A DNA stretch of 64,000 nt from an uncultured Gammaproteobacteria bacterium (GTDB taxonomy: Bacteria; Patescibacteriota; Patescibacteriia; Magasanikbacterales; JBBTQS01): positions 694,359 through 758,358 of the forward strand of contig OZ246400.1 in assembly GCA_965230935.1 (NCBI GenBank). Reading direction: 5' to 3'. Shown here one piece after another: positions 4,149-57,407 of this stretch. The translations under genes were made by a program, and so were the position numbers. How positions within the stretch are numbered: the stretch's first letter is position 1; each line of letters opens with the position of its first letter. The notes under the pieces were generated by a model. The model did not search any database. It worked only from the letters and a program-made list of their open reading frames with translations, and was not told the DNA's origin.

Positions 4149-4168
4149 AACAGAATTGCGAGCGCGAA

Positions 4169-8876: not shown

Positions 8877-8893
8877 GTGGTTGTGTGTTGTTG

Positions 8894-10096
8894 TCAGGGC
8901 TCGTCGGTCTCCAGAGGTCCTGGGTAGAAGTTGATCCTCAGGGGGAACCACGTGCACTCGGCAGGGTCGCTGATAGGATCATCGGCCGTGGGGCAGATCT
9001 CTTCCAGCGTATTGCCGGATCGGAGCATCTCCGCGAGGTAGGCACGGTGCTCCTCGATACTTGGCGGTCCTTCGACCTTCACGACGATGTCTTGAGGAAG
9101 AGCGCCCTTGTGCTTGAGCTGTGAGACCACCTGCTCCAGTTGCTCAGGATCACCGGCTGCTGCCACGAGGGCTCGCGTGTCAGCATCTGAGAACTTGTCA
9201 GGATCCAGGGCGACGCACGCTTGCGGTTCCTGGGTCTCACCAGCTTCTTCAGTACCCTCTTGGGTGTCGCACCCGCTGAGGAACATGGATTGCATCTCCT
9301 CGTCAAGCTGGTGACGGCAGCCGGGGTTGAGTGCGGTGAAGAAGGTGAACGCCACGCTGAAGTGGTCTTTCAGGTACAGCTGGAGTTGGTACGACGTGTG
9401 CTTGAGAATATTGCACGCCTCATCACGCTCCCGAGCGGCTTGCGCATTGGAACCGGAGGCCGCATCCAGAGACTGCTCGATGAGGTCGTAGACCACCAGC
9501 CAGCCGCCTTCCATCTGGTTGGCGATGATTGCGCGAGTCAGGTCGCTCATCTGCGTCGGATCGCCCACTTCCTTTTGCTCGTCGATCGCCATGAGCATGC
9601 ATTGCTCAAGGCTCTCCAGTGGCGTCTCCTCAAAGGAACACGTGCACAGCGGGTGCGACGTGCCAAAGAGGGACAGGAGCATAACAGCAATGATCTCTTC
9701 TTTCGTCTCAGGCTTGGGCTCGACGGTCATGGCGCCGGAGACCACGCGCAGCAGTGCGGTGCTGCACAGCGCTTCCAGGTTGTCTTCCTGGTTACCTGCC
9801 GAGCGCATGATGTCCAGCAGCGCGTACCACGTGGCGTAGTCGTTTGCCAGTAGGAGCTGGGCGACCACGTGTGGCGTCTGCGGGTTCATCTTGTCCTCGA
9901 CCGGGGCGAGCAGCATCTTACGCACAGCTTGCATGCGCTCGAGCTTGTTCAGCTGCATGAGCTGCTCGTACGGGGTCGTGATGGTCGGCGCCTCGTCAGA
10001 CGAATCTCGTGGCTCCCAATCAGTGAGCCACAAGATTGTTCCTGCGAGGCCGATCAGGAAACCCAACGCCAAGGCGTTGAGTTGGAGTTTGGACAT
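8894..10096 (-). CDS. hypothetical membrane-anchored protein, GC-rich, paralog of the following ORF (cassette B)
   Basis: 400 aa, N-terminal TM. Shares motifs KLERMQxVR, DYATWYAL, SHPLC, GGW, FPGC and a C-terminal ICP..DPI..C with 10316..11494. About 60% GC. Own promoter TTGACA-17-TATGCT (10217-10245, minus strand) and GGAGGGG RBS. Confidence 0.6.
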   Translation of the reverse strand: MSKLQLNALALGFLIGLAGTILWLTDWEPRDSSDEAPTITTPYEQLMQLNKLERMQAVRKMLLAPVEDKMNPQTPHVVAQLLLANDYATWYALLDIMRSAGNQEDNLEALCSTALLRVVSGAMTVEPKPETKEEIIAVMLLSLFGTSHPLCTCSFEETPLESLEQCMLMAIDEQKEVGDPTQMSDLTRAIIANQMEGGWLVVYDLIEQSLDAASGSNAQAARERDEACNILKHTSYQLQLYLKDHFSVAFTFFTALNPGCRHQLDEEMQSMFLSGCDTQEGTEEAGETQEPQACVALDPDKFSDADTRALVAAAGDPEQLEQVVSQLKHKGALPQDIVVKVEGPPSIEEHRAYLAEMLRSGNTLEEICPTADDPISDPAECTWFPLRINFYPGPLETDEP

Positions 10097-10315
10097 ATGC
10101 CCCTCCAGAGGTAAAAGGTTGTGGTCTGTAGGTCAGCGCAATACACAATGCATCGCAGACCAATCAGTGTTGAGCAGTACTCAGCACGGTTGATGCACGA
10201 TTACAGACAACGATTCAGCATACACGATTTTTAGACGGTTGTCAAGATTGCGTAGTAATTAAAAAACGCCCGTAGCACGGAACGTTTTTCGTTGTTGGTT
10301 TGTTTGGAACGTGAC

Positions 10316-11494
10316 TTACTCCTTGCCCCTCACTGAGTAGGTGGTCATTTTTTGGGGCGGGCACTTCTCCGGCGTGCGGATCGGATCTTTCACCCCAGGG
10401 CAGATCTGCTCGATCGGTGCGCCTTGGCGTTTGAGCTGGATGAGCATACTGCGAAGTTCCTCAGGAGTAGTATCCTGCTCGGTCTTGATGAGCTGGCTTC
10501 GGTCCTTGGCACCAAGTTGGCGTGCCATTTCCTCGTCGCGCTGTGCATCGTTGTCGAGCTCCGCCAGCTTGTACAACATTGCCTCTTGCTCTTCGCGACA
10601 CGCTTGCTCTTGCGCTGCCTCACTCAGCTCACCCTCTTGAGCTTGCTCATCGGTCTCCTCAACCGGATCGCAAGTGAGGTCCTCGCTGAGCGTATCGGGA
10701 AGACCTTCTTTGCAGCCAGGAAAGAAGAGGGCGAACATGGCAAAACGCAAGCTGTACTCGTCAGCAGAGAGCGTGTTCAGTCTGCCAGCGACACGCCACA
10801 AAAACTCGCAGGTCTCTTTTTGCTGGGCATCTTCCCGCTTTCCGGAGGTGCCATTCTTCATGGCCGAGTAGACAGCTGACCAGCCGCCGACCATCTTGCT
10901 CGCCAGGATGTTGCGTGCGACCTCATCAATTACCGGGTCGAACTCGAGCGGGTTCTCTTTGTGCAATCGTTGCACCTCATCCTGGGTTTCTTTGCCGATT
11001 TGATGCGCCCAATCCGGGTAGTCCGGCAGCATGCACAGTGGGTGTGACCAGAGGTGAGTCACGATGCGCAAGTCATCCGGGACTCCTTGCGGATCGGTAC
11101 CTATGACCACGCGCATCAGTGCGATACACATGGGGTGGTCCAGGTCGATGCCGGTAGCTCCTGCCTGCTCCATGATTTCGTACAGGGCATACCAGGTGGC
11201 GTAGTCCTCGTTACGCAGCAGGTCGATAACCTCATGCGCAGCGCCGGGATCGTCCGGATCCCACTCCTTGGTGAGCGCCTCGCGCACGTGTTGCATGCGC
11301 TCGAGTTTGCTCATCATGGAAAGCGGCTTAGTTAGGTTCGAGCCGGCGTACACCACCAGCTGACTCTGGTAATAGGAGCGCACCGCGCTTCCCACACCGA
11401 GAGCAACCAGTAGTGCGATGATGACGATGGGCACTCTGCGCACCCACCGATGACGTTGCAAGAACGTCAAGTTTTTGGGTTTGCGAACGCTCAT
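10316..11494 (-). CDS. hypothetical membrane-anchored protein, GC-rich, paralog of previous (cassette C)
   Basis: 392 aa, N-terminal TM, same motif set as B. AGGAG RBS. Minus-strand 3' flank CCAAACAAACCAACAACG plus hairpin 10262-10289. Confidence 0.6.
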   Translation of the reverse strand: MSVRKPKNLTFLQRHRWVRRVPIVIIALLVALGVGSAVRSYYQSQLVVYAGSNLTKPLSMMSKLERMQHVREALTKEWDPDDPGAAHEVIDLLRNEDYATWYALYEIMEQAGATGIDLDHPMCIALMRVVIGTDPQGVPDDLRIVTHLWSHPLCMLPDYPDWAHQIGKETQDEVQRLHKENPLEFDPVIDEVARNILASKMVGGWSAVYSAMKNGTSGKREDAQQKETCEFLWRVAGRLNTLSADEYSLRFAMFALFFPGCKEGLPDTLSEDLTCDPVEETDEQAQEGELSEAAQEQACREEQEAMLYKLAELDNDAQRDEEMARQLGAKDRSQLIKTEQDTTPEELRSMLIQLKRQGAPIEQICPGVKDPIRTPEKCPPQKMTTYSVRGKE

Positions 11495-13069: not shown

Positions 13070-14605
13070 TTATTTTGCGTTTCGATAATGAAGCGCTTCA
13101 AGGATATGTTCTTGAGTAATATTTGGTGATTGGACAAGATCAGCAATTGTCCGCGCCATTTTTTTGATTCGAAAATAACTGCGCGTTGAGAGGTGGAATT
13201 TTTTAGCGGCAGTAATGAGGATTCTTTCACTTGACGCGTTAAGTGCGCAATAATACTTGGTCATCGTTGAGTTCATCTCACTGTTGGTACTAATAGATTC
13301 GTGGGCAAATCGATCATGCTGAAGCGTACGTGCCATTTGAATACGGGTGCGAATTTGTGCGCTTGGTTCTTCCGGTTTGGTATTGCGTAGCGTGGTGATC
13401 GGCACCCGTGGCACCCACACGTGCATATCAATGCGATCAGCAAGTGGTCCGGATAATTTTTTTTGGTAACGAGTGATTTGTTGTGGAGAACAACTGCATG
13501 TAATGTCCGGGTCGTTGGCAAAACCACAAGGACATGGATTTTGGCTGGCTATTAACATGAACGATGCCGGAAATGTGGCTTGTGTTTGTGCGCGAGAAAT
13601 GGTGATCGCGCCATGTTCAAGTGGTAGACGAAGCGCCTCAAGGACATCACGTCTAAATTCAGGAAGTTCGTCCAAAAATAAAATGCCGTGGTGCGCTAAA
13701 CTAATTTCTCCTGGTGTAAGTTCACGACCACCACCAATACATGCACTCATTGAGCTGCTGTGGTGTGGCGCACGAAATGGCCGTCGGGTAATGTGTGGTG
13801 TTTGCTCATTGAGCAAACCAGCCAGTGCATAAATCCGTGTTACCGCTTTCATTTGCATGGAGGTAAGTTCAGGGAGGATAGTTGCACAAGCGCGTGCAAG
13901 CATGGTTTTGCCAGATCCAGGTGGGCCACTGAGTAAAACATTGTGCGCACCGGCAGCAGCAATCTCAAGCGCGCGTTTGCTGTTGTGCTGTCCAATGATT
14001 TGGGCAAAATCAGGTGAAGGTTTCGCGTATATTGTTTTGTTTCGAAAGAGTTTGATCGATTGTGCCGATATTGGGGTAAGTGTTTTTTTGCCAATGCAGT
14101 GGTCATAGAGTTGGGCGATATTAGTGACCGGATAGGTGGCACATTCTGGAATCAGGTGCGCATCAGCATGATTTGCCTTTGGAATATAGACATTTGTGAT
14201 ACCGAGCTTTTGAGCATCAAGTAGTATCGGGGTGAGGTTATTGCAATAGCGTACTGTTCCATCAAGTGCGAGCTCACCCAAAAACAAGTCGTGCCCAGTG
14301 ACGGTGAACGATTTTTTGTTGGTGGCGAGCAGTATCCCGATAGCAATGGCCAGATCATAGATTGACCCGATTTTTTTAATTCGCGCTGGGGCTAGATTTA
14401 CAGTAATGCGATAGGTGTACGGGAATTGGAGGCCCACATTATAAATTGCGGATTTAATCCGTTCTCGTGCTTCTTGCACAGCGGTATCAGGAAGGCCGAC
14501 AATAGTGAATCCAGGAAACCCTTTTCGCAGGTCAACTTCGACAGTAACTAAGTGGGTGCGCATGCCAATAACAGTGGCGCAAGTGGTGGTGGTAATCATA
14601 AGCAA
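13070..14605 (-). CDS. comM: YifB/ComM family Mg-chelatase-like AAA+ ATPase
   Basis: 511 aa. N-terminal Lon-like domain, Walker A GPPGSGKT, C-terminal ChlI-like region. Confidence 0.85.
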   Translation of the reverse strand: MLMITTTTCATVIGMRTHLVTVEVDLRKGFPGFTIVGLPDTAVQEARERIKSAIYNVGLQFPYTYRITVNLAPARIKKIGSIYDLAIAIGILLATNKKSFTVTGHDLFLGELALDGTVRYCNNLTPILLDAQKLGITNVYIPKANHADAHLIPECATYPVTNIAQLYDHCIGKKTLTPISAQSIKLFRNKTIYAKPSPDFAQIIGQHNSKRALEIAAAGAHNVLLSGPPGSGKTMLARACATILPELTSMQMKAVTRIYALAGLLNEQTPHITRRPFRAPHHSSSMSACIGGGRELTPGEISLAHHGILFLDELPEFRRDVLEALRLPLEHGAITISRAQTQATFPASFMLIASQNPCPCGFANDPDITCSCSPQQITRYQKKLSGPLADRIDMHVWVPRVPITTLRNTKPEEPSAQIRTRIQMARTLQHDRFAHESISTNSEMNSTMTKYYCALNASSERILITAAKKFHLSTRSYFRIKKMARTIADLVQSPNITQEHILEALHYRNAK

Positions 14606-16827: not shown

Positions 16828-17907
16828 TTACGCAGTGGCCACTTCGTCCAACACGTCTGCAGTCTTCTTTTTACTTTTAGTGGGCTTAGTCTCGGTTTCT
16901 TCTTGCGCACCTTTTACCGCTTTAAGAATATCTTTGCGAATCATATCCATAAGTTTTGGATTCTCACGCAAGTACGTTTTTGCTTTTTCTCGTCCTACGC
17001 CAAGTTTTTCTTCTCCGTAACTGTAACTATTGCCCGCTTTGCTGATCACTTTATGGACGATGCCAGTATCGATCAAATCGCCAGCGATCGAGATTCCTTC
17101 ATTGTACATGATGTCAAACTCAGTGGTTCGAAATGGTGCCGCAACTTTGTTTTTCACTACTTTTACTTTTACGCGGTTTCCAATGATGCGCTCACCTTGC
17201 TTGATTTGTGCTCGGCGACGAATCTCGACTCGAACTGATGAATAAAACTTGAGTGCAGTCCCGCCAGTGGTTGTTTCTGGATTTCCGTAAAACACACCAA
17301 TCTTTATACGCGTTTGGTTGATGAAAACAACCACGGTTTTGGTCTTGTTTACAATTCCGGCCAGTTTGCGCAGTGCCTGACTCATAAGCCGTGCTTGCAG
17401 CCCAACATGACGATCTCCCATATCTCCTTCAATTTCAGCTTTTGGTACCAGCGCGGCTACTGAGTCGATCACCACCACATCAACAGCATTTGAACGAACC
17501 AGTGTTTCAAGAATCTCTAGCGCTTGTTCCCCGGTGTCAGGTTGTGAGATTAGCATTTCATCAACATTCACTCCAATCTTTCGTGCATAATCAGGATCGA
17601 GCGCATGTTCTGCGTCGACAAACGCTGCGGTTCCACCTGTCTTTTGTACTTCAGCAACAATATGTTGTGCTAAGGTTGTTTTCCCCGATGCCTCAGGGCC
17701 AAATATTTCAATAATTCTCCCGCGCGGAACTCCGCCAACGCCAAGTGCTAGGTCAAGAGACAAGCAGCCAGTGGATACGGCATCTACTTGTGCTGATTTT
17801 GATTCACCAAAGCGCATGATTGCCCCGTCACCAAAGCGCTCTTTGATCTGTGCAATTGCCACCTCGGCAGCCTTTTGTTTATCGCTCGTTTCAGTTGTTT
17901 TTGCCAT
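16828..17907 (-). CDS. recA: recombinase RecA
   Basis: GPEASGKTT Walker A, canonical RecA core, Lys-rich C-terminal tail. Confidence 0.95.
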
Positions 17908-30893: not shown

Positions 30894-31373
30894 ATGGCGC
30901 GCCGTATTTTAGGAATTGATCCGGGGTTTGGACGAATGGGATATGGTGTGGTCGAGCAGGTGGGGCGTGATCAGTACCGTGCGTTGACACATGGGTGTGT
31001 GCAAACTGATGCTGGTGCTTCGTTTGGGAAGCGGTTGCTCGAGATTGAACAAGCTTGCACAGAGTTGTTGAGTGAGTTTTCTCCTGAATTGATGGCAATT
31101 GAGCAGTTGTATTTTTCAAAAAATGTTACCACTGGAATGCGGGTTTCTCATGCTCGAGGGATCATTGTGGCCAGCGCTGCGCGCGCTGATGTACCAAGTA
31201 TTGATCTTAATCCCATGCAGATTAAACAAATTATTACTGGTCATGGGACAGCTGATAAGGCGCAGATGCAACGCATGATTCAGATGATGTTGTCTCTTAA
31301 AGAGATCCCCAAGCCTGATGATGCAGCAGATGCGCTGGCCATTGCGCTGTGCGGATTTTTGCATCGTCCATAA
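30894..31373 (+). CDS. ruvC: crossover junction endodeoxyribonuclease RuvC
   Basis: ILGIDPGFGRMGYGV N-terminus with catalytic Asp. C-terminal DAADALAIAL. Start taken at ATG 30894 within the listed ORF. Confidence 0.85.
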   Translation: MARRILGIDPGFGRMGYGVVEQVGRDQYRALTHGCVQTDAGASFGKRLLEIEQACTELLSEFSPELMAIEQLYFSKNVTTGMRVSHARGIIVASAARADVPSIDLNPMQIKQIITGHGTADKAQMQRMIQMMLSLKEIPKPDDAADALAIALCGFLHRP

Positions 31374-31439
31374 TGTAGATTTTTCTCTAAAATCAACAAC
31401 ACCGCCACGTGGTGGGGTGTTGGTGGTTGTGTTGAGTTT

Positions 31440-32087
31440 TCAGTCGCTCTTGCTGGTGTAGTAGAGCTTACCTAGCAGGGCTTTTTGTTGTGCCTCGTCA
31501 AGTCCTCTGAAGAAGCGCATGGCTCCAGGGATCACATCACTCACGTGATGAGCGACCGTATTCTCCGGGAGCTCACCCACCGGCCACCAGCGAGCAGTCT
31601 TGCCTTTTTGGGGATGGCCAGCCAAGGTCACCAGGAATACGTGTGGATGTCCCCAGCCGCGGTCGTCGTCGATGAAGTGATCACTCGCAAGGGTGAAGTC
31701 CGAGATCTCGACCCCAAACTCACTCCGGCTCAGGCGGCTGACTACCGCCCGGTGATCCTCCCTGAATCGGTAGATCGACCCAGGGCAGTGCCACATGCCC
31801 CCGTAATGCGGGTCGTTGTCCGGTCGCAGGGCCATGAAGACCTCAATACGCGTCGCACGAGATCGCCCTCCAGCGTAGTAGCAACGGCGCAACGCCACTG
31901 CCTCGAACGCGCTGTACGGACGTACTCGCAAGAGCGCCTCGAACAACTCGTGCGAATGCTGTGCTGCCGGGTCAACTCGACCGAGCATCTCCATCAGCAA
32001 CGCTTCTTGATCAGCAGGTATGAGTTGCTGAACCAGATGCGCCACCCTGGATAGGCTTTCAACCAAAGCCAAATCCCTCCTTCTTGT
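31440..32087 (-). CDS. hypothetical protein, GC-rich (cassette D). Start uncertain (TTG/ATG near 32050-32093)
   Basis: About 60% GC ORF. Upstream minus-strand promoter TTGACA(32141-46)-17-TATGCT(32118-23) and AAGGAGGG RBS. 3' flank CAACACAACCACCAACACC plus palindrome CCACCACGTGGTGG. Weak Nudix-like PxxGGMWHCPGS segment, but no Nudix box. Confidence 0.5.
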   Translation of the reverse strand, partial: TRRRDLALVESLSRVAHLVQQLIPADQEALLMEMLGRVDPAAQHSHELFEALLRVRPYSAFEAVALRRCYYAGGRSRATRIEVFMALRPDNDPHYGGMWHCPGSIYRFREDHRAVVSRLSRSEFGVEISDFTLASDHFIDDDRGWGHPHVFLVTLAGHPQKGKTARWWPVGELPENTVAHHVSDVIPGAMRFFRGLDEAQQKALLGKLYYTSKSD

Positions 32088-32222
32088 ATTCAACCGGAAC
32101 TGCCGGCACAGGCAAGGAGCATACCATGGCGGTACGCTCCTGTCAATATAAAAGCAAAACCCGAGCCATAGCTGGCACGGGATGCGTTGTGTGTTTGTTT
32201 TGACTTGGAGATGGGCGCGTGG

Positions 32223-32954
32223 TTAAGCTCTTGCCTTAGTGATCGCCGGCATGACCTCGTCCTGCACGAACTGCTCTGGTGTCGGCACTTGGCTCCAGTC
32301 CGGATCCTCACCGATCGTCTCGGCCGTGAAGTTGGCTCGCGCGAGCGGCGTGTCGATCAGGCCAGGCTCCAGTAGTACCAGCTTGACCTTCCCACCATAA
32401 TACGCGATTGAGTGCGTGAGCAGTCCCTTGTGCCATTTACTGACTTGGCGCATGGAGAAGACGTATCCATGCTCGTTTTCCATGCGCGGGTCATCGTCAG
32501 CGAAGTTCGCCGCCTGGGAGCTGACGTTCACTATCACGCCACCACCACCTGTGTTGTACAACGCCAGCGAGAACATGTGACACATCATCACCTTGCTGAT
32601 GAAGTTCACCAGCTCGAGTCGAGCGATCACAGCCTCCTTGCCATCCCCATTGGGATTGTTGTCCCACATGAACATCCCGGCGGCGTTCACCAGAATGTCG
32701 AGACGTTTGGTTCGCGCATGCACTTGCGCGCCCAACCTCTGGATCGAGCACGGGTCAGTGACGTCTGTGATCATGATCGCGCCGTGCTGCTCTCCGCCTA
32801 CCGCCTCCAGCGTCTCTTGGAGTCGCGCCTCGTTGCGCGCCACCAGAAAGACAAAGTACCCGTCTTGGGCAAGCGCCACCGCAATGGCGCGACCGATGCC
32901 GCTTGAGGCGCCGGTGACCAGTGCGTATCGCATGGTTGGTGTTCCCTCACTCAT
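32223..32954 (-). CDS. short-chain dehydrogenase/reductase (SDR) family oxidoreductase, GC-rich (cassette E)
   Basis: TGASSGIGRAIA Rossmann motif, NAAG, downstream Tyr/Lys region. About 62% GC. 3' flank AAACAAACACACAACG plus hairpin plus U-run (32155-32215, minus strand). Confidence 0.8.
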   Translation of the reverse strand: MSEGTPTMRYALVTGASSGIGRAIAVALAQDGYFVFLVARNEARLQETLEAVGGEQHGAIMITDVTDPCSIQRLGAQVHARTKRLDILVNAAGMFMWDNNPNGDGKEAVIARLELVNFISKVMMCHMFSLALYNTGGGGVIVNVSSQAANFADDDPRMENEHGYVFSMRQVSKWHKGLLTHSIAYYGGKVKLVLLEPGLIDTPLARANFTAETIGEDPDWSQVPTPEQFVQDEVMPAITKARA

Positions 32955-33045
32955 ATGGTATTATGGGCGTGTCGAAAAGATTAAGCGATCACTTAACTAT
33001 CCACGCAGTACTTTTAGCCTACCTGGCGTGGTACTGTCTGTCAAT

Positions 33046-33973
33046 AACTAATATGTTAGACCTTGTCATTGTTGGTGGCTCTGCCGCTGGAACTGCAGCG
33101 GCCGTATACTGCGCGCGACGCAAACTTAATTTTAAAGTTGTGGCTAAGGACCTCGGCGGTGAAGTTGCCACCTCTGGTGAGATTGAAAATTACCCTGGAA
33201 TCAGCCATACCACCGGAATAGAACTTTCCAAACAGTTTAATGAACAACTCAAATATCAAAATGTTGATGTTGAAACCGGGGTTATTGTAGAGAAGATCGA
33301 GCAGATCGAAGGCGGATTTCGTGTGACTGGAAAATTAGGTTCAGAAGAAAAGATTTATGAAGCAAAGTCAATCATTGTCGCAACCGGCTCAGAACCGCGC
33401 CATCTTGGGGTTGAAGGAGAAGAAGAATTTGCACACAAGGGAATCACCTATTGTACTGTCTGTGATGGACCGTTGTTTAAAGGTAAGACAACCGTGACTA
33501 TTGGAACTGGAAATTCAGCGTTGGAATCAGCATTGATGATGGGAGAGATTGCCCAAAAGCATTATGTATTGGCAAAATACCCAGAGTTTAAAGGTGAGCA
33601 AGTGTTGATCGACAAGGTAACCGCGCACAAAAATATTGAAGTGATTTATCAAGGGATGACCACCAAGGTTACCGGCGATGGTCTGGTGAGTGCAGTACAC
33701 TACACTGACAAAGATGGTAAAGAGCACAAGTTGGATGTGCAAGGAGTTATGGTGCACATTGGATTGCTCCCACAAAGTGAATTTATTGATTGTGTTGAAA
33801 AAACCAAGCGCGGGAACATCATTGTTGATCGTCTTGGTAAGACGAATTGCCCAGGAATTTTTGCCGCAGGAGATGTCACTGACATTCCATATTTACAAAT
33901 TGGTGTGGCAACAGGAATGGGTATTGCGGCAGCGTTATCGGTGATTACGTATTTGAATACGTTGGCAGAGTAA
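33046..33973 (+). CDS. trxB: thioredoxin-disulfide reductase-like flavoprotein
   Basis: FAD motif LVIVGGSAAGTAAAVY, redox-active CTVCDG, NAD(P) motif. Backbone-like GC. Start at ATG 33046. Confidence 0.8.
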
Positions 33974-33995
33974 AGTAGAGCAAAAAAGAAAGGTA

Positions 33996-34025
33996 AACAC
34001 CTGGTGATGAGCCAGGTGTTTTTTT
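33996..34025 (+). terminator. rho-independent terminator of trxB
   Basis: AACACCTGG/CCAGGTGTT stem plus T7. Confidence 0.6.
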
Positions 34026-34110
34026 ATATTGACAATTGAGAGAAATTGATATAGTGTCGCATCAGACAGGAGTCACTGAACCAATACAGGACGTTATCGA
34101 GGAGGGAATC

Positions 34111-34779
34111 ATGCCACAGGATCTCACGTGGCAGGAGTGGTTGGCAGCGTACCGAGCTAACCATGCAATGGAGGTACGTCGATGTACGTTGGGTGCTCTG
34201 GCACAGGGCATCCCGCAGGACAAATCCCACACGGTGTGGCGCATGCAGCCCAGTGAGGTGTTTGGTCGCGAGGATGGCGCGTTCTTTCATTTGACCGGAG
34301 CGCGCATCAGCTTGCGAGGAGGCGAGCGTGAGGTTGCTGCTTGGTCCCAGCCCATGCTGGTCGAGAGCGGTGAGGGGCGCGTGGTTTTGCTGCGTCGCGG
34401 GATAAGGTATTTGCTGCAGGCCAAGCTCGAGCCAGGCAACCCCGTGTCCGGCAATCGCGTACTGATTGCACCGACGATCCAAGCATCAGAGTCGAATCTC
34501 GCACAGAAGCACGGCGGTCGTCGCCCGCGTCACGCCGAACGACTCGACACTGCGGATGGTCCGCGTTGGTACAAGGCTCCTCAAGATGGTGGTCGGTTTG
34601 ACCAGAAGGTCAACCAGTATGCGGTTATCCCGGCAGGTTCTCGTCCGATTCAGATCGATCCAGATTCAGAGCGCTGGTTCGACGTCAACGAGCTGGCCGA
34701 AGTGATCGTCTCTGGTGAGGCCAACCAGCATCTGCGTGAGGCTTTCGGTTTTATTTGGGCCGCTGAGTACATGGAGTAA
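34111..34779 (+). CDS. hypothetical protein, GC-rich (cassette F). Possibly NDP-hexose 2,3-dehydratase-like single repeat.
   Basis: AGGAGG RBS 6 nt before ATG 34111. Promoter hexamers TTGACA(34029)/TATAGT(34050) with a 15 nt spacer. Segments LLQAKLEPGNP and APTIQASESNL recalled as resembling the hexose-dehydratase family (from memory, not verified). Followed by (CACAA)n 34779-34803. Confidence 0.55.
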   Translation: MPQDLTWQEWLAAYRANHAMEVRRCTLGALAQGIPQDKSHTVWRMQPSEVFGREDGAFFHLTGARISLRGGEREVAAWSQPMLVESGEGRVVLLRRGIRYLLQAKLEPGNPVSGNRVLIAPTIQASESNLAQKHGGRRPRHAERLDTADGPRWYKAPQDGGRFDQKVNQYAVIPAGSRPIQIDPDSERWFDVNELAEVIVSGEANQHLREAFGFIWAAEYME

Positions 34780-34832
34780 CACAACACAACACAACAACAC
34801 GACCCGAGCATAACTGCCGGGCCTTGTTTATA

Positions 34833-34861
34833 TTGACAATTTTTGCGCGAGAGCATATACT
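34833..34861 (+). promoter_or_regulatory. consensus-like promoter TTGACA-17-TATACT for cassette G
   Basis: Shares the 14-mer TTATATTGACAATT with the promoter of cassette F (34024-34037 vs 34828-34841). Confidence 0.5.
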
Positions 34862-34902
34862 GCCGCTTCCAGCTATGATGGCTGTGAGAAGGGAGGAGAT
34901 AA

Positions 34903-35739
34903 ATGGCTGACGAGATAAACTCCGAACAGGAACGGATAAAACAGCAGGCGCTTACGCGCGTACGAAGTACCTCGATTGCGCAGTTGCGCAATACTCCACC
35001 ACTAGTCGTAGCGGTTGTGCTTTTGGAGACTCGGCTCGGTGGGCTGGAGGGGTGGGATATCCCCGAGGAAGTCCGAGAAGACCTGACACAAAAGCGTCGA
35101 GCGCTCGCACAGGCAATGCAGCGCCCGGGCCACCACAGTTATGTGGGGATGTATCTGCCATATCGTGATCCAGAAGGACGCGAGCGATGGGTGCATTTTG
35201 GGACGCAGTACATGCGTGATGTCAAGAAGACACGCTCCGGACTCGCTGCACTGATCAATCATGGCCGTCCGTGTACCGACGCATTGCGAGACTTGTTGGC
35301 TGAGTTTGTAGACTCCTGTCCCAACGAGGAAGGAGACATTTACTTGGTTGACACCCGTCTTCGTGCCATATCCTCAGATCACCTACCGTATCATTGGGAA
35401 TTCGGTTTGCACATCGCGTTACTGGTAGCGCGCGAACAGGCCGGAAGAATTATGTCGCGGTGGGTAAGTCTGAGTAAGCGCTGCCCCCTGATTCCGTTGG
35501 CAGATGCTGCACCGGACATCTGGCTCGTATTTCGTGAACGAGAAGAGGAGGGATTTGTCCAGGAGGCGTTGGCGGGTGAGAATCTCCAGGAGATCGCGGT
35601 TGAGGATGGCGTAGATGAGATACTCGCGCTTCGCCCTCAATGCCGGCACGTCGTGGTCATGGTGGACACTCCGGCGCAGGCCGCGGCAGTAGTCATTGAG
35701 ATCGGGAGACGGGTGCTCAACGCGCGTCTTACTCCATGA
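34903..35739 (+). CDS. hypothetical protein, GC-rich (cassette G)
   Basis: 278 aa. GGGAGGAG RBS. About 62% GC. Followed by CACACAACACAACAACC (35745-35763) and hairpin plus T6 (35766-35798). No recognizable domain. Confidence 0.55.
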   Translation: MADEINSEQERIKQQALTRVRSTSIAQLRNTPPLVVAVVLLETRLGGLEGWDIPEEVREDLTQKRRALAQAMQRPGHHSYVGMYLPYRDPEGRERWVHFGTQYMRDVKKTRSGLAALINHGRPCTDALRDLLAEFVDSCPNEEGDIYLVDTRLRAISSDHLPYHWEFGLHIALLVAREQAGRIMSRWVSLSKRCPLIPLADAAPDIWLVFREREEEGFVQEALAGENLQEIAVEDGVDEILALRPQCRHVVVMVDTPAQAAAVVIEIGRRVLNARLTP

Positions 35740-35840
35740 CTCCGCACACAACACAACAACCAAAATCCGCTCATTCGAGGACTCGATCAGGCGGTTTTTT
35801 GATCTTAAAATTTACTCAAATTATGCTATACTATTAATAT

Positions 35841-36152
35841 ATGACAATCTCAGAACTCTTGTTTGCAACCACGACACCCAGTCTCTCACAAATCATCTTG
35901 GTGGTACTTGGTTTTCTTGGTGCCATCCTCATGGTATATGGGATTTTTTTGGAGAAAGAGCGATTGCAAGATGCTGTATTTGCTCTTGGTTCGTTGATGT
36001 TGGGAGTCTATTCACTCTCAGTTCATAATGCGATTTTTACTATTGTATTTGGGTTATTTTTCCTGGGAAGTGCTTGGGAGTATATTCAAATCGTAACCGG
36101 CAAGCACAAACATATCTGCTACCCCTGTGTGAGCGGTAAGAAAAAATCATAG
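35841..36152 (+). CDS. small membrane protein, hypothetical
   Basis: 103 aa with two or three hydrophobic helices. -10 TATACT upstream. Confidence 0.4.
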   Translation: MTISELLFATTTPSLSQIILVVLGFLGAILMVYGIFLEKERLQDAVFALGSLMLGVYSLSVHNAIFTIVFGLFFLGSAWEYIQIVTGKHKHICYPCVSGKKKS

Positions 36153-36153
36153 T

Positions 36154-37014
36154 ATGCCGATTCACGATAAAAAACTTAAGCAACTTGAAGAGCAAGCTCA
36201 TAAGATCCGTAAGGATCTTATCAGTATGTTGACTGTGGCTGGATCAGGGCATAGTGCTGGTCCACTTGGTATGACTGACGTATTTACGGCACTCTATTTT
36301 CATGTACTTAATCATAAACCTAAACGGCCATGGTGGGAGGATCGTGATCGGGTGATTTTGAGTAATGGTCATATTTGTCCGGTGCAGTATGCCACCCTGG
36401 CACATGCCGGCTATTTTCCTAAAAAAGAATTAAAGACCTTACGACAGCTCGGCACACGATTACAAGGGCATCCACATCGTCGGGGTTTACCGGGAGTCGA
36501 GAATGCAGCAGGTCCGCTTGGTCAGGGGACCTCGGTTGGGGTTGGGGTAGCACTTGCCGGGCAGATGGCAGGTAAACGATACGAAACGTATGTTCTCACT
36601 GGAGATGGAGAACTTAATGAAGGGCAGGTTTGGGAAGCATTTATGTTTGCTGGAAATTATCCATTGCATAATTTAACCGTGATCGTTGATCGCAATAATA
36701 TTCAGATTGACGGCATGACTGAGCAGACACAACCACTGGAGCCGCTGCGTCAGAAATTTGAAGCATTTAATTTTCATGTGATTGATGTTGATGGACATAA
36801 CATTCGCGCAATTGTTGATGCGTGTGACGAAGCAAAGGCGATTTATGAAAAGCCGGTCGCTATTTTGGCACACACGATTCCAGGAAAAGGAGTTGAGTTT
36901 ATGGAGTGGGATCATACGTGGCATGGGAAACCACCTGCAAAAGGTGAAGAGTCACAGCATGCACTTGCTCAGTTGCGCACCTTAGGTGGAAAAATCATGA
37001 GTGAACATGAATAG
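36154..37014 (+). CDS. transketolase, N-terminal (TPP-binding) subunit
   Basis: GHSAGPLGMTD, GHPHRRG..PGVE, GDGELNEGQVWEA motifs of the transketolase N-terminal section. Split-gene form. Confidence 0.85.
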   Translation: MPIHDKKLKQLEEQAHKIRKDLISMLTVAGSGHSAGPLGMTDVFTALYFHVLNHKPKRPWWEDRDRVILSNGHICPVQYATLAHAGYFPKKELKTLRQLGTRLQGHPHRRGLPGVENAAGPLGQGTSVGVGVALAGQMAGKRYETYVLTGDGELNEGQVWEAFMFAGNYPLHNLTVIVDRNNIQIDGMTEQTQPLEPLRQKFEAFNFHVIDVDGHNIRAIVDACDEAKAIYEKPVAILAHTIPGKGVEFMEWDHTWHGKPPAKGEESQHALAQLRTLGGKIMSEHE

Positions 37015-41194: not shown

Positions 41195-42586
41195 TTGGAG
41201 GAAATAATGGGCCGTAAGTTCTTGATGAACGTCGCGTGCACACTTCTGATGGGTGCATGTCAGTCTGTGGTGCCGGATGCTTTTTCTGGTGGTGTGGTTG
41301 TTTCGGACGCTGATGTGGGGTTGGTTCCGGCGGGTTCAAGTGGCGTTATATCAACGGGTGTTGCAGATGGTGTAGGTGTGGTGTTGGATGAGTCCCAGGA
41401 TACGCAGCGTGGCGACGAGGCGGAGATGGACTCTCAACAGGATGGCGAGCCGACGATTGAGCACCAAGACGAAGTGATCGCTGTTGAGGAGCGCCTTGCT
41501 GGAACCTGTTGGTACATCGATCCAGCCAAGCACTGGCTGGACGAGACCAACGCAGTGCTTGCCATGAGCAACGACGATGTGGTGGTGATCGGGAACACCC
41601 ACGTGGCAGTGAGTGAGTACGCTGTACAAAAAGATGCCGTGATCACGCTACTCAATCGCTCAGGAGATCTGCTTTGGCAAGAGCAGCTCGGGTGGACAGA
41701 CCATGACGACCTTACCGCTGCTGTGGTGAGGGATGATACCCGATTTTTAGCCGTTGGGAACACACGTTCTTCTGGATCAGGTGGATCGGACGCGTGGATC
41801 ATAGAGATGGATGTGAGTGGTGAGCTGATTTGGGAGGAAGATTATGGCGGCGTGAACAATGATGTTGCTCGTTCGATCGCTCGTGATCTTGAGGGCGGGT
41901 ACATTGTTGTTGGCAATACTGGAAATGTGGTTGATGGTGTTGCCACGTCACCCTGGATATTTCGCATTAGCGAAATGGGACTTATGCAGTGGGGGAAGAT
42001 TTTAGGGCTCAAGCAGGGCGGCGTGCTTTCTGATGTGATTCGCATTAGCGAGAACGAATTTGTTGCGGTTGGCTCGACCGTGATGGATAGTGATGGAGAA
42101 ATCAAAACTATTCTGGTGCGGTTTGCACAAAATGGTGGTGTGATTTGGCAGGTGCTGCATAGCGCGATCCCGTATCAGGTTGGTCAATCAGTGGTGCAGA
42201 CCGCAAGTGGTGACTTTGTCATCACCGGCTATGCCGACATCGGTGAGCAATACCTGCATGACGGTTTTGTCCTACGCGTTACCGCTGAGGGTGGGTTTGT
42301 TTGGCAAAAGACATTGGGTGGTGATTACTATGACACCTTTACTGCAGCGGCCTGGACACTTGGTGATCATGTCTTGTTGGCAGGACTGACTCGTTCGTAT
42401 GGGTACGGCGGGGCTGATATGTGGTTGGTCAAGATGAAAGCTGGCGGTCAAGTGCTCTGGGAACAGGCCCATGGCACTCCTGATTTTGAAAAGGCTAACG
42501 CGGTGTTACCGCTTGAAGATGGGATGATTCTAGCGGGTCGCGGTGGGGTGTACCGACTCAATACGCATGGGCAGCTGTGTCCATAA
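41195..42586 (+). CDS. beta-propeller repeat lipoprotein (SBBP-like repeats), GC-enriched (cassette H)
   Basis: Lipobox LLMGAC. Seven approximately 50-aa repeats of the pattern VGNT..G..DAWI..D.SG...W. Promoter TTGGCA-17-TATAGT, GGAGG RBS. 3' flank TAACAACATAACAACGCACC plus hairpin. Confidence 0.6.
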   Translation: MEEIMGRKFLMNVACTLLMGACQSVVPDAFSGGVVVSDADVGLVPAGSSGVISTGVADGVGVVLDESQDTQRGDEAEMDSQQDGEPTIEHQDEVIAVEERLAGTCWYIDPAKHWLDETNAVLAMSNDDVVVIGNTHVAVSEYAVQKDAVITLLNRSGDLLWQEQLGWTDHDDLTAAVVRDDTRFLAVGNTRSSGSGGSDAWIIEMDVSGELIWEEDYGGVNNDVARSIARDLEGGYIVVGNTGNVVDGVATSPWIFRISEMGLMQWGKILGLKQGGVLSDVIRISENEFVAVGSTVMDSDGEIKTILVRFAQNGGVIWQVLHSAIPYQVGQSVVQTASGDFVITGYADIGEQYLHDGFVLRVTAEGGFVWQKTLGGDYYDTFTAAAWTLGDHVLLAGLTRSYGYGGADMWLVKMKAGGQVLWEQAHGTPDFEKANAVLPLEDGMILAGRGGVYRLNTHGQLCP

Positions 42587-42707
42587 CAACATAACAACGC
42601 ACCTCGTTATCCTTGAGCTTGGATGGCGAGGTTTGCATTGCCAAAAGTGCTTTTTCAGGCCAATATAGAGATATGGTAAGAAAATAGAGACCATTGCGTC
42701 AGATATC

Positions 42708-53534: not shown

Positions 53535-53606
53535 ATTATTACAAATGGTTAAGCGCTACATCAAAACCAGGAACCTTTCGGCTCCTGGTTTTTGGTTGTA
53601 GCGACG

Positions 53607-55340
53607 TTACCCTCCCTCGGTTTGGAGTTGTACCAGACGGTGGTACAGTCCATTTTGTCGCATGAGTTGATCGTGCGTTCCCACCTCGGCCACGCGACCA
53701 TCTTCCACGATGATGATCTTGTCCGCGTGCATGATGGTGGAGAGTCGGTGCGCAATGAGGATCAGCGTCTTTTTCCCTTCCAGAGTCGACAGCGCATCTT
53801 GAATGGCACGCTCAGACTCTGCATCCAGGTTGCTGGTTGCCTCATCAAACACCACCACGGTCGGATCGTTGAGCAGTGCTCGCGCAATACCCACTCGCTG
53901 CCGTTGTCCACCGGAGAGTTTCATACCACGCTCACCTACGATGGTGTTGTACCCGTCCGGGAGTGTAGAAGCAAACTCATGCACCCGTGCTAGCTTAGCC
54001 ACTCGTTTGACCGCTTGCTCGGTTGCTTTCGGGTTCCCATACGCAATGTTCTCCCAGATCGTTCCACTCATGATCTCGACCTCTTGCGGAACATATCCGG
54101 TCATGCGACGGTAGGCTTGCAGGCTGAGACCTCGCAAGTCATTCCCGTCGATGCGGATGGTTCCTGAGTTAGGGTCATAGTAGCGGAACAGTAGCTTCAC
54201 GATGGTCGACTTCCCACCCCCTGATGGTCCGGCAAATGCCACCGTCTCCCCAGGGTTGATGGAGAAGTTCACGTTGGAGAGTGCGTTTTGTTCTGGGGTG
54301 TACCCAAACGTCACGTCATCGAATGTGATTGCTCCGGTCCAGCGTTTTGGCGCGATCGCACCAGGTGCACTTACCACACGTGGTTTGGTGTGAATGATGT
54401 TGAACAGTCGTTGCATCGGCTCTGTTGCCTCAACCATGCGGTCGAGAATTTGGTTCAGGTTGAACATTGAAATGTACACCTTCTCCGAGAGCGTCAGAAA
54501 CAACACGACCGAACCAATGGTAAGTTCTCCAGTGATGGCTTTGTATCCAGCAAGTGAGATGATCCCAAGTCGTCCGAAGTTGATGATCATCATGCGCCAG
54601 AAGTTCATGCGCGTGCCGAACATCCAACGTAATCGTCCCAGGTCATAGATCCGTCCGCGCATTGCACCGTAGCGCTTCTTCTCGCGCTGCTCTTGGGCAA
54701 ACGCTTGCACTGTTTTGATGTTGATCACCGACTCGCACAGCCGACCGGCTGAGTTCTCGTACAGATCTTCTTGCTCTTTGCGCCACGGGTATGTGGTGTG
54801 ATGCAAATGCCAGGTCATGATCGCAAAGATCGGGATGACGATAGCAAAGAGAATGGCAAGCTGCCAATCTAGTGCGATCATCAAGATCGATGTCCAGGTG
54901 ATTTGCATGAGTAGGGGAATGAGCATCCACAACAGCTGTCCACCGAACTCGACCAGCTTCATGGTTCCGCGTTCAAGACGTGCGATTTGTTCACCGGTTT
55001 GTTCTTGCTCATGGAACCCGAGCGAGAGTGCCAAAAGTTTTTTCTGTGCGAGCTTCGGCAGCTCGTTTTCCATCCAGTACAATGCATCAAGGATGTAGCG
55101 ATCCACGATTACGTCGACCGCCGCAATCAGTGTTTGCGCCACAAAGATTCCCAGTGCCAACCAGAGGATGGTACTGAGTAGATCATCGGTGCGTAGTGTC
55201 AATGTGTCGAGCACTTCCTTAAAGAGGTATGTCGGCACAATCATCAGTGCTTCAAGCACCACGATGAACGCGATTGCCTTTTGGAAGACCTTCCGATGCG
55301 GTCTGATCAACCGTAGGAACTGTGATATGAATTCTTGCAT
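53607..55340 (-). CDS. ABC transporter permease/ATP-binding protein (MsbA-like exporter), GC-enriched (cassette I)
   Basis: Six N-terminal TMs. Walker A GPSGGGKST, signature LSGGQRQR, Walker B VVVFDEATS. Start at ATG (MQEF) with AAGGAG RBS. About 55% GC. Confidence 0.85.
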   Translation of the reverse strand: MQEFISQFLRLIRPHRKVFQKAIAFIVVLEALMIVPTYLFKEVLDTLTLRTDDLLSTILWLALGIFVAQTLIAAVDVIVDRYILDALYWMENELPKLAQKKLLALSLGFHEQEQTGEQIARLERGTMKLVEFGGQLLWMLIPLLMQITWTSILMIALDWQLAILFAIVIPIFAIMTWHLHHTTYPWRKEQEDLYENSAGRLCESVINIKTVQAFAQEQREKKRYGAMRGRIYDLGRLRWMFGTRMNFWRMMIINFGRLGIISLAGYKAITGELTIGSVVLFLTLSEKVYISMFNLNQILDRMVEATEPMQRLFNIIHTKPRVVSAPGAIAPKRWTGAITFDDVTFGYTPEQNALSNVNFSINPGETVAFAGPSGGGKSTIVKLLFRYYDPNSGTIRIDGNDLRGLSLQAYRRMTGYVPQEVEIMSGTIWENIAYGNPKATEQAVKRVAKLARVHEFASTLPDGYNTIVGERGMKLSGGQRQRVGIARALLNDPTVVVFDEATSNLDAESERAIQDALSTLEGKKTLILIAHRLSTIMHADKIIIVEDGRVAEVGTHDQLMRQNGLYHRLVQLQTEGG

Positions 55341-55840
55341 GTGTTTGTTGGTTACTCCTTCTTTCTCCTTCAAGTCCCTTCTTTCCCGCCTCGTGTTCGT
55401 GTACACGAAAATACTCTGCTTCTTAGAAGCAGAGTATTTATTCGAAAATTGCTAATTTAAGCTAAATTCATGATTTCGAAGAAACACACTGCTCCCAAGA
55501 GTTGGTATCGACATATGCAATACCGCGTGCCTGTGGGGTAACAGTTGGCATGCCAAAAGCAAGCCCTACCATGAGCTGGAAGGATGCAAACTTCTGGTTT
55601 TGCCAGTGTTTCTCCATAGAGATTAAAAATAATTGTCGTTATTGTAGACGTTTCCAGAGTGGAAACGTTACACTATAGCGCGCGCAATATGAGATGTCAA
55701 GAATCATATTTTAGGGTCACTTATTGACAAACGTACATCTTTATGCTACACTATCCGCGTATAAATGCAGTCTCATTACTGGGAATAGTGTCGATATTTC
55801 TCAAGAGTCAAGCATATACATGTAAGAAAATATCTACGTT

Positions 55841-56126: not shown

Positions 56127-56673
56127 GCAAGGAAAAAACATTATCATTGGTTTGTTAGTCATCATCGTCTTGTTGTTGGGGTACATGGCATTTTTCGACA
56201 ATGATGATGTCACAGAAGAAACATTTGTTGACCGGGTTATTCTCACGTTTAACGAAGATTATGAAACTAATTTTGCAAAAGCAGGCCGCGCTGCAGTTGC
56301 ACGTATACACGAGGAGAACTTACGTTTTGCATGGAGTAAGAATTTTCCAATGCTTGAGAAGCGGTTTAGCGATCGGTACATGATTTTAGAATCAGATGAA
56401 AGTGTTGATTTTGTAGCACTATTACGCAAAGAACAGAATTCAGCTATTTTTGATACGCCAGTTGATCAGTCATTTGATTTCTCAACCATTACTACCTATT
56501 CATACCGAGATATGGTGAAGAATGGGATGGCGAAGGCGTTTGGTGCTTCGGTGCAGCCAGGGGATTACTTGGCAACTGTTGAACCACTACCAACAGCTGA
56601 TGGACTTGAAGCGTTTATTGCGCTCTATCGAAGCATTAGCGGGGAATGGGTTGCGATTGGGGGGAATCAATAG
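56127..56673 (+). CDS. membrane-anchored hypothetical protein
   Basis: N-terminal TM IIIGLLVIIVLLLGYMAF. Start at internal ATG. Confidence 0.4.
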
Positions 56674-56743
56674 GGGATATTGTCATAATTAAAACAACCT
56701 CGTCCTGGTGAGGAAGAGGTTGTTTTGTTGTGCTGTTGTGTTA

Positions 56744-57407
56744 TCACTTCATGAAGAAGCGTTGTGCGTTCTCGCCGACCACTCGTCGAATCTGCCACTC
56801 CTCCAGTCCGTGCGCGAGCAGGGAGCGGATCAAGGTCTTGAAGCAGTCTGCGACCGTGTGGCAGCCGGGTAGACGCCACTCGTCCAGAATGCCGCCGTAG
56901 TCGGTACCGATCCCTACCTGGAGCCACTCGCTGGCTTCTCCGAGCTCCACCAGATGCTCGATGAAGGGGCCATCCAGTCGCTCGTAGAATGGCTTTGCAG
57001 GAGAGAGGCACACGATGCCGCCGAGCTGGATGATCTCACGTGCCAGATGCATACTCAGGCACCGATCGTAGTTGCCATTTCGCAGTAGCGGGTTGACCAC
57101 TTCACTGTGCTGTACACCACCGTGGGTGTAACACAGTGGCGGCGCGCCTCCCCAGTGCCAGTATCCAGCATCTTTTAGGGTGTAACTCAGTGCGGATGAC
57201 CTCCACCTCGGCTTTGTGGGCGGGCGTGGTCTTGGGATAGGTTCCATCCCGTTCGCAGAACAGGACGCGCAAGGCGCCACCGAGCTGGTCCATGTTGGCG
57301 AGCTGTTCGGCAGACCCCCATCCGCCGCTCTGCTCACCATACTGATCCAGATGTGCGTCAAAGCACATAAACGGACGGTCATACCCGTCAATGGTGATTC
57401 CAGGCAC
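56744..57407 (-). pseudogene. amidohydrolase-2 (PF04909-like metal-dependent hydrolase), frameshifted and shortened, GC-rich (cassette J)
   Basis: GTG start with AAAGGAGG RBS. N-terminal metal-binding FDAHLD in one frame. H.GG (LCYTHGG) and GIGTDYGG (metal-binding Asp) plus C-terminal ENAQRFF in the +1 frame. Frames switch near 57190. 3' flank TAACACAACAGCACAACAAAACAACC plus hairpin 56690-56735. Confidence 0.5.

Follow-up and report, generated by a model that had tools for sequence, protein, structure and literature searches.

Four GC-rich genes surround trxB in a patescibacterial genome

The DNA analyzed here, referred to as the window, is a 64-kb natural contig from an uncultured, ultra-small bacterium of the Patescibacteria (candidate phyla radiation, CPR). 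Within 4.4 kb of the window, four GC-rich genes, D, E, F, and G, lie on either side of the thioredoxin-reductase-like gene trxB. An earlier note had proposed that together they form a small, transplanted pathway of nucleotide-sugar or redox modification. Here, we describe these genes, their predicted transcription signals, their protein families, and their counterparts in related genomes, and we weigh the pathway against a history of separate gene gains.

Gene models were chosen from ribosome sites, gene callers' models, and homologs (Table 1). For D, the alternative extents were a longer open reading frame (ORF) reaching up to 32093 and a model up to 31994 that gene callers also gave, while F starts at the ATG behind GAGGAGGG and not at the TTG at 34036. 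D and E are oriented away from F and G, and trxB, which has its own strong terminator, separates the two pairs. The same junctions between D and G, with identical sequence, were recovered from European Nucleotide Archive assemblies of two samples, from a Logan contig, and from a 931,061-bp NCBI contig; an assembly chimera is ruled out, since independent assemblies carry the same junctions. D to G are identical across the available contigs, in which no population polymorphism for dN/dS (the ratio of nonsynonymous to synonymous substitution rates) was seen.

D, E, F, and G are real genes and form a GC-rich cluster around trxB, as the earlier note described, in a backbone of 44 to 46% GC. They have a GC content of 0.57 to 0.59 and a GC content at third codon positions (GC3) of 0.58 to 0.75, compared with 0.42 to 0.48 and 0.33 to 0.44, respectively, for backbone genes, which include rpoB/C, yebC, ruvC, trxB, a split transketolase, pfkB, fba, recA, comM, ftsK, and a gene for an H+-pyrophosphatase (H+-PPase). 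The boundaries in GC content are sharp and coincide with the ORF ends of D to G. These four belong to a set of about 10 genes with 53 to 61% GC that are scattered over the window, and in this set most of the GC excess is held by third codon positions (GC3, 0.53 to 0.85). Intergenic DNA and core genes are more AT rich.

Each gene has its own predicted promoter and terminator

The promoters, terminators, and transcription units of D to G are predictions from sequence. Each of the four genes has its own predicted σ70-type promoter and hairpin terminator; given these separate signals and the two orientations, the layout is not that of an operon. The D promoter begins immediately past the T-run of the E terminator, and all three promoters of D, F, and G directly follow the T-run of a preceding terminator, which accounts for the TTT in the word that they share. 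A search of the leaders and 3' regions against Rfam gave no match even at an E value of ≤1.

The shared promoter word and the 14-mer common to F and G, which had been taken as signs of a duplicated promoter module, are both present. The word common to the D, F, and G promoters is the 12-mer TTTATATTGACA (3 matches versus 0.02 expected), and TTATATTGACA occurs exactly at 32141-32151(-), 34024-34034(+), and 34828-34838(+). The duplication holds only for a part of this similarity. The pattern TTGACA-N15-19-TAnnnT is found at 21 sites in the window (versus 3.9 expected), which precede GC-rich genes and core genes alike, rpoB among them. The hexamer TTGACA on its own is depleted (36 copies versus 57 expected), and about half of its copies have a -10 element at 16 to 18 nucleotides (nt). 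Because it is depleted and so often in promoter context, this -35 hexamer is taken as the consensus of the organism, and the same two features suggest selection against spurious promoters. Most of the shared word is the genome-wide, generic -35 consensus at a terminator-promoter junction; the spacers, -10 regions, and leaders of the D, F, and G promoters are unrelated.

What remains is the 14-mer of F and G, which lies inside an 18-nt direct repeat (17 of 18 positions identical) whose copies are 804 bp apart. This 18-mer is the only part that looks like a true duplication, and the 804-bp F unit is alone among the ten GC-rich units of the window in having a flanking direct repeat. In addition, the D and F units begin with an identical 13-mer, TTTTATATTGACA. 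We also compared the E-to-D with the F-to-G junction; homology beyond the 12-mer and a tract of C and A residues (see below) was weak and not convincing.

Gene content beside trxB differs among related genomes

Syntenic loci of other CPR genomes were fetched by anchoring on trxB. The closest, L007 (trxB identity, 77%; GC, 44%), has the order ruvC, E homolog, trxB, an unrelated 247-amino-acid (aa) ORF, a truncated G homolog, and mem103. The E homolog is a syntenic ortholog in the same orientation with 57% identity. In L008 (68%; GC, 36%), the order is ruvC, trxB, a 108-aa ORF, a full-length G homolog (E value with the family profile, 1e-21), mem103, and transketolase. In more distant CPR genomes (50 to 56%; GC, 38 to 48%), trxB, mem103, and pfkB follow each other with nothing between them. 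D and F are absent from both L007 and L008, and E is absent from L008. A search for D among 5.8 billion proteins returned only the same gene from contigs of its own genome, and neither D nor F had relatives on viral contigs. The G homolog of L007 retains 126 aa of the N-terminal part and ends just before mem103, so that G appears to be dispensable in the L007 lineage.

Three genomes thus have three unrelated ORFs in the slot that separates G from the trxB terminator, F being the one found here. The possibility that the 247-aa ORF of L007 is a diverged F or D was rejected, as neither BLASTP nor hhalign gave a match and searches of PDB and Pfam were empty. Inspection by eye suggested a Nudix-like strand (DQPVIVESPG) and a degenerate box (AEALAEAGF) in this ORF, which no search supported.

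Taken together, D to G have separate promoters and terminators, two orientations, and independent presence or absence in L007, in L008, and in the contexts of their homologs. We consider it reasonably probable (about 0.65) that the region is a gene-insertion hot spot of a CPR chromosome that holds separately acquired single genes, rather than an operon or a pathway. Four foreign-like accessory genes would have entered two intergenic gaps, ruvC|trxB and trxB|mem103, at different times. From their presence and absence across L007, L008, and the distant CPR genomes, G would have arrived first, before the split from L007 and L008, followed by E, which is common to L007 only, and last by D and F. 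Each gene would be an autonomous unit, made up of a near-consensus σ70-type promoter that adjoins the T-run with which the previous terminator ends, a leader of 40 to 90 nt that includes a strong AGGAGG-type ribosome site, the ORF, a spacer of 18 to 30 nt of C and A only, and an intrinsic terminator. In the case of F, insertion between the trxB terminator and G probably duplicated the -35 region of G and thereby left the 18-nt repeat.

Islands and individually transferred genes make up as much as 13% of genome length in Patescibacteria, and the majority of detected transfers are from Patescibacteria to Patescibacteria (PMC12455944). D to G resemble these in their atypical composition, mostly unassigned function, location in a streamlined genome, and variable content between relatives; the general phenomenon is thus already known. 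They differ in that each unit comprises one gene only, together with a consensus promoter and, on the 3' side, a C/A-only spacer and a terminator, an arrangement of which a limited search of the literature found no published account. A mobile element is not apparent: D to G lie on both strands, the sole flanking direct repeat is the one around F, the ORFs scanned in the window yielded no recombinase or integrase, and a repeat scan of 31000-36500 contained no attC-like site. A phage or defense origin was likewise rejected, since D to G had no PADLOC match and no PHROG match apart from a generic FabG-like family for E, and D and F had no relatives on viral contigs. Outside the D-to-G region, the window contains comM and recA, compatible with natural transformation as a route of gene gain.

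Table 1. Features of the D-to-G region, of the rest of the window, and of related loci. Coordinates are those of the window unless a locus (L) is named.
Feature	Position	Strand	Description
D	31440-32066	-	GC-rich gene
E	32223-32933	-	GC-rich gene; longer ORF up to 32954
trxB	33053-33973	+	Backbone thioredoxin-reductase-like gene, CTVC redox motif
F	34111-34779	+	GC-rich gene, single PF03559 domain
G	34903-35739	+	GC-rich gene, predicted Lon-like domain
D promoter	32118-32152	-	TTTATA + TTGACA (32141-32146), 17-nt spacer, TG-TATGCT (32118-32123)
E promoter	33016-33044	-	TTGACA, 17-nt spacer, TAGGCT; divergent from trxB
F promoter	34029-34034 (-35)	+	TTGACA, 17-nt spacer, -10 TAGTGT (34052-34057) or TGaTATAGT (34047-34055)
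G promoter	34833-34838 (-35), 34856-34861 (-10)	+	TTGACA, 17-nt spacer, TATACT; 11/12 consensus match
D terminator	31394-31425	-	Hairpin, -18.2 kcal/mol, z -3.9, then UUGAUUUU
E 3' region	32154-32203	-	C/A tract, CCCG...CGGG hairpin, then UUUUGCUUUU; -17.4 kcal/mol
F 3' region	34777-34828	+	C/A tract, then hairpin 34796-34828; -12.3 kcal/mol
G 3' region	35742-35801	+	C/A tract, then hairpin and U-run 35761-35801; -14.6 kcal/mol
trxB terminator	33995-34021	+	Own strong terminator
Direct repeat, left copy	34020-34037	+	TTTTTTATATTGACAATT; contains -35 box of F promoter
Direct repeat, right copy	34824-34841	+	TTGTTTATATTGACAATT; within G promoter region (34824-34861)
D C/A tract	31408-31440	-	Just past stop codon; partly the 5' arm of the terminator hairpin
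E C/A tract	32183-32203	-	Precedes hairpin
F C/A tract	34777-34805	+	Precedes/overlaps hairpin 34796-34828
G C/A tract	35742-35768	+	Precedes/overlaps hairpin 35761-35801
Other GC-rich gene 3' end	4085-4150	+	With C/A tract
Other GC-rich gene 3' end	8800-8896	-	With C/A tract
Other GC-rich gene 3' end	10235-10318	-	With C/A tract
Other GC-rich gene 3' end	42584-42660	+	With C/A tract
Other GC-rich gene 3' end	53540-53609	-	With C/A tract
Other GC-rich gene 3' end	56670-56746	-	With C/A tract
L007 slot ORF	L007 9080-9823	+	247 aa
L008 slot ORF	L008 9038-9364	+	108 aa
L007 E ortholog	L007 7164-7874	-	57% identity
L007 G homolog	L007 9789-10169	+	126 aa
G module	L016 3319-6825		Three genes
G module	L026 2125-5936		Three genes
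G module	L028 3-1575		Last two genes only
comM	13070-14605	-	Backbone gene
recA	16828-17907	-	Backbone gene
GC-rich segment	16575-16740	-	~166 nt, downstream of recA
Promoter of GC-rich segment	16742-16770	-	TTGACA-17-TACCGT
Tandem paralog	8894-10096	-	GC-rich gene, 400 aa
Tandem paralog	10316-11494	-	GC-rich gene, 392 aa
ABC transporter	53607-55406	-	ABC_membrane + ABC_tran
Isolated GC-rich gene	L009 920-2686		Lower-GC CPR backbone
Isolated GC-rich gene	L019 4098-4424		Lower-GC CPR backbone
Isolated GC-rich gene	L022 2308-3369		Lower-GC CPR backbone

F is a half-size relative of EvaA-type dehydratases

The assignment of F to the NDP-hexose (nucleoside diphosphate-hexose) 2,3-dehydratase fold, proposed in the earlier note from the peptides LLQAKLEPGNP and APTIQASESNL, was confirmed by profile searches; both peptides are present in F. 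The 222-aa protein consists of one PF03559 domain of the Nudix superfamily (92.1 bits versus a Pfam gathering cutoff of 25; E value, 4e-26), is half the size of EvaA, and aligns to either half of it (4j7g; E value, 1.8e-18). With the EvaA-type dehydratases (EvaA 4j7g, TylX3, Gra-orf27, and SpnO) it shares QAKxEPGN, which holds E139 of EvaA, as well as APT(I/V)QA(S/T)xSN, HGG, and GGRF. Unlike these enzymes of ~470 aa (471 in EvaA), which have two tandem Nudix-like lobes forming pockets A and B, F has a single domain, is monocistronic, and lies outside any sugar cluster. While F keeps the equivalent of E139 (QAKLEPGNP), that of E190 is a Gln with an adjacent Asp (PQDGGRF, compared with AEQGSWF in EvaA). 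Mutation of either E139 or E190 abolishes EvaA activity (PMC8987622).

A word-seeded search of 5.8 billion proteins returned a sole relative of F, P0002, with 33% identity and the same single-domain, half-size PF03559 architecture. P0002 comes from a bacterium with 32% GC, where it sits in a deoxysugar cluster with genes for an NTP-transferase, epimerase/dehydratases, GFO_IDH_MocA, and DegT. In contrast to F, it scores 185 bits, keeps both glutamates (NEEGGRF at the E190 region), and is followed by the GFO_IDH_MocA and DegT genes. By analogy with EvaA, F would have to dimerize to rebuild a two-lobed NDP-sugar site, and it could work as a homodimer with the neighboring Asp as a base.

D and E deviate from the catalytic signatures of their superfamilies

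D is a 208-aa protein with a helical N terminus and a putative MutT-like Nudix fold at approximately residues 68 to 167, which align with MutT/Nudix hydrolases, including GG(M/F)WxxPG (PDB 4v14; E value, 1.2e-4). The match to NCBIfam is weak (E value, 0.009), there was no match to Pfam NUDIX (PF00293), and a single-sequence AF2 model reached a predicted local distance difference test score (pLDDT) of 40. What separates D from these hydrolases is a broken Nudix box, along with additional N- and C-terminal helices. D retains equivalents of E44, R52, and E57 but not of E53 and E56; in terms of the box GX5EX7REUXEEXGU, it has a Leu for the Glu of REU and a Ser for the first Glu of EE. The description of D as Nudix-like without the catalytic box is thus accurate, and D probably has a nucleotide-binding Nudix fold devoid of the metal-binding glutamates. 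A direct relationship between D and F was rejected, as hhalign gave no match.

E, a 236-aa protein, is a classical short-chain dehydrogenase/reductase (SDR), as had been noted (adh_short; E value, 2e-30). It has the Rossmann motif TGxxxGIG (TGASSGIG), NAAG, and the catalytic Ser and Tyr of FabG- and glucose 1-dehydrogenase-like SDRs, from which it differs by YxxxM and by a 4-residue insertion between Ser and Tyr. The lysine of YxxxK is a Met both in E (YVFSM) and in its L007 ortholog (YVTSM), which also shares the insertion. The best match outside this clade has 34% identity. Judging from these motifs, E probably binds NAD(P), with its catalytic lysine gone.

F is thus a new and divergent PF03559 protein with a single domain; D is probably a divergent Nudix-superfamily protein, and E is a divergent SDR. 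All four proteins of the region, including G (see below), deviate from the catalytic signatures of their superfamilies, and for this reason fast-evolving accessory or binding proteins fit better than a tuned pathway. Instead of forming successive steps of a single route, D to G are more likely to be four separate accessory proteins that evolve fast and either bind ligands or act as divergent enzymes.

Under the pathway proposal, F would catalyze dehydration at C2/C3 of an NDP-4-keto-6-deoxyhexose, the keto product would be reduced by E, and the nucleotide would be bound or hydrolyzed by D, all under matched strong promoters. The sequence-level calls behind it stood, and a profile match of F to hexose dehydratases, whose absence the earlier note had named as a refutation, was found. 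In favor of the proposal, F is a bona fide PF03559 protein with the EPGN glutamate in place, and a true deoxysugar cluster surrounds its one homolog, P0002; E is an SDR of the NAD(P)-binding kind, the Nudix superfamily includes F and probably D, and all four genes, whose promoters resemble each other, are found within a stretch of 4.4 kb. The interpretation as a whole was only partly supported, and the inference of one transplanted pathway did not stand. The layout of promoters and terminators predicts separate transcription units and no cotranscription, the genes appear to be of different ages, and F has a Gln at the E190 position where mutation abolishes EvaA activity. The homologs of D to G do not co-occur elsewhere, so that the co-occurrence check suggested in the earlier note came out negative: E is found without F in L007, G without D, E, and F in L008, and P0002 in a cluster without relatives of D, E, or G, while the homologs of G are part of an unrelated module. 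The scanned ORFs of the window included no NDP-sugar genes (RmlA/RmlB, ketoreductase, aminotransferase, or glycosyltransferase). Oxidoreductases of the GFO/IDH/MocA type are the usual 3-ketoreductase partners of PF03559 dehydratases, and such an enzyme is encoded next to P0002, whereas E is a classical SDR without the catalytic Lys. We therefore regard a nucleotide-sugar or redox module as improbable.

G belongs to a small family with a predicted Lon-like fold

As the earlier note had indicated, G carries no recognizable motif: Pfam, NCBIfam, PADLOC, and PHROG gave no match. A structure model (pLDDT, 78), built from only 8 sequences, predicts that the 278-aa protein combines a helical N-terminal part (residues 1 to 72) with a Lon-protease-like domain of the S5 domain 2 type. 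G has no sequence similarity to the Lon proteolytic domain or its relatives (RadA C-terminal, ComM N-terminal, BrxL C-terminal, and CalpL), and it lacks both an ATPase module and the Ser-Lys pair of Lon protease. In alignments of its family, no Ser or Lys is invariant; the invariant residues are R152, G168, A172, R186, W187, and D205. According to the model, G is probably a Lon-like pseudoprotease domain; it belongs to a small, uncharacterized family with a probable Lon-like fold.

An exhaustive HMMER search with G returned 7 relatives with 26 to 32% identity, all from GC-rich bacteria, among them one metagenome-assembled genome of the Myxococcota. These distant homologs belong to a conserved three-gene module that encodes a helix-turn-helix/tetratricopeptide repeat (HTH/TPR) protein of ~600 aa, then a ~265-aa secreted protein whose sequence is repetitive and resembles beta strands, and finally the G-like protein. 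The neighbors of these homologs showed no similarity to the window, including D, E, and F. Two of the module loci, L016 and L026, also have a histidine-kinase/response-regulator gene no more than a few kilobases away.

The GC-rich genes share a C/A-only tract and an elevated GC3

All ten GC-rich genes of the window have a near-pure tract of C and A, 18 to 30 nt long and with an approximate consensus of ACAAAACAACACAACAAC, between stop codon and terminator, where backbone terminators have A-tracts instead. The window contains 22 C/A tracts (versus 5.5 in shuffles), seven of which are located exactly at GC-rich 3' ends. The word CAACACGAC has 4 matches in total (versus 0.79 expected) and directly precedes three terminators on their 5' side. 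In 145-nt folds, the tract is unpaired between a structured ORF end and an intact hairpin. It is absent from the L007 and L008 orthologs and from GC-rich genes at other CPR loci. As a guess, the tract might be an insulating spacer for the terminators of GC-rich transcripts.

With respect to composition, the syntenic orthologs of E differ, with a GC3 of 0.75 here and 0.42 in L007, while the two backbones have similar GC3. Accessory genes nonetheless lie above the backbone in all three genomes: 0.58 to 0.75 versus ~0.40 in the window, 0.42 to 0.50 versus 0.33 to 0.38 in L007, and 0.31 to 0.36 versus 0.18 to 0.23 in L008. Either an in situ replacement of the allele from a GC-rich pool or a compositional regime specific to this gene class may underlie the difference in E.

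Several further loci have related features. An ABC transporter in the window has a GC3 of 0.63 and a C/A-rich tract with a terminator; the GC-rich class is thus not limited to orphan genes. Two paralogous GC-rich genes in tandem (30% identity over ~340 aa), which had no family match in any library, each have their own TTGACA promoter, C/A tract, and terminator. A GC-rich segment downstream of recA (fold, -71 kcal/mol; z, -3.4), with a consensus promoter and, at its 3' end, a CAACACGAC spacer and a terminator, matched nothing in Rfam and may be either a small RNA or an ORF of 70 aa. In other CPR genomes, isolated GC-rich genes with no assigned function (L009, L019, and L022) stand in lower-GC backbones without a C/A tract.

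One way to read these shared ends is that the GC-rich genes form one pool of single-gene cassettes, derived from a GC-rich donor lineage, which related CPR bacteria swap when they recombine at terminator-promoter junctions. The 5' end of a cassette would be T-run, ATA, and TTGACA promoter and its 3' end C/A tract and hairpin; exchange might take place, for instance, after natural transformation, with resident alleles such as E replaced in situ. This would account for the same 3' architecture in all ten genes, the CAACACGAC words at three terminators, the 13-mer of D and F, the direct repeat around F, the distance in GC3 between E and its ortholog, and the three unrelated ORFs in the slot before G; recA and comM are present in the window, and most transfers in Patescibacteria are within the group (PMC12455944). 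Yet the flanking repeats are found at one cassette only, the promoter spacers and leaders are unrelated, neither a recombinase or integrase nor an attC-like site emerged from the scans described above, the C/A tract is missing from GC-rich genes at other CPR loci, no GC-rich recombination patches are seen in the flanks of trxB and ruvC, and a donor was not found. On balance, we consider such a pool unlikely.

Alternatively, composition and C/A tract might be produced and maintained in situ. The genes would then make up an expression class with a codon regime of its own, in which each unit is monocistronic and has a strong promoter, and a spacer free of G and U would be selected to keep the hairpin from mispairing with the GC-rich, highly structured upstream RNA or would bind a posttranscriptional regulator. 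That accessory genes exceed the backbone in GC3 in each of the three genomes, although divergence is saturated, would be in line with this, as would the single-stranded tract next to an intact terminator in the folds, the same spacer and terminator at the GC-rich noncoding candidate downstream of recA, and the A-tracts at backbone terminators. However, no mechanism is known to raise GC3 by 0.2 to 0.35 in selected bacterial genes, intergenic DNA and core genes are AT richer, the relatives of G outside CPR occur only in GC-rich bacteria, which fits import, and the role given to the spacer is conjectural. We judge this explanation very unlikely.

A further proposition, which we consider unlikely, is that the GC-rich genes, including D to G, are a distinct class of single-gene expression cassettes, each made up of a consensus promoter, a GC3-rich ORF, a C/A-only spacer, and a terminator, whose composition and ends are maintained or repeatedly renewed by a process undescribed in CPR bacteria. 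A candidate for this process would be the replacement of cassettes at terminator-promoter junctions, with a GC-rich pool, perhaps that of the host, as the donor. If so, syntenic E orthologs can be 0.33 apart in GC3 although the backbone around them is alike.

Implications for gene gain in CPR genomes

Some observations weigh against a hot spot of separately acquired single genes. Ancient acquisition followed by amelioration does not predict the gap in GC3 between E and its L007 ortholog, and the duplication model covers the F/G repeat but does not explain the 13-mer TTTTATATTGACA common to D and F. The shared C/A tract points to a common process or source rather than to unrelated events. Furthermore, the window represents 64 kb of a genome of ~931 kb, so that NDP-sugar genes may lie elsewhere.

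With these reservations, separate acquisition corrects the annotation of the region: an apparent minipathway becomes four unrelated accessory genes, and F is best recorded as a divergent, half-size PF03559 protein rather than as a proven dehydratase. The finding is largely ordinary, and its real oddities are the C/A spacer, the GC3 discrepancy of E, and the 18-nt repeat around F. It illustrates how genes may be added to a streamlined CPR genome that is probably symbiotic: they would come singly, at terminator-promoter junctions beside conserved genes, and each would turn into a self-contained transcription unit. The C/A spacer and the GC3 gap of E pose small, testable puzzles on composition and transcript architecture in uncultured ultra-small bacteria.

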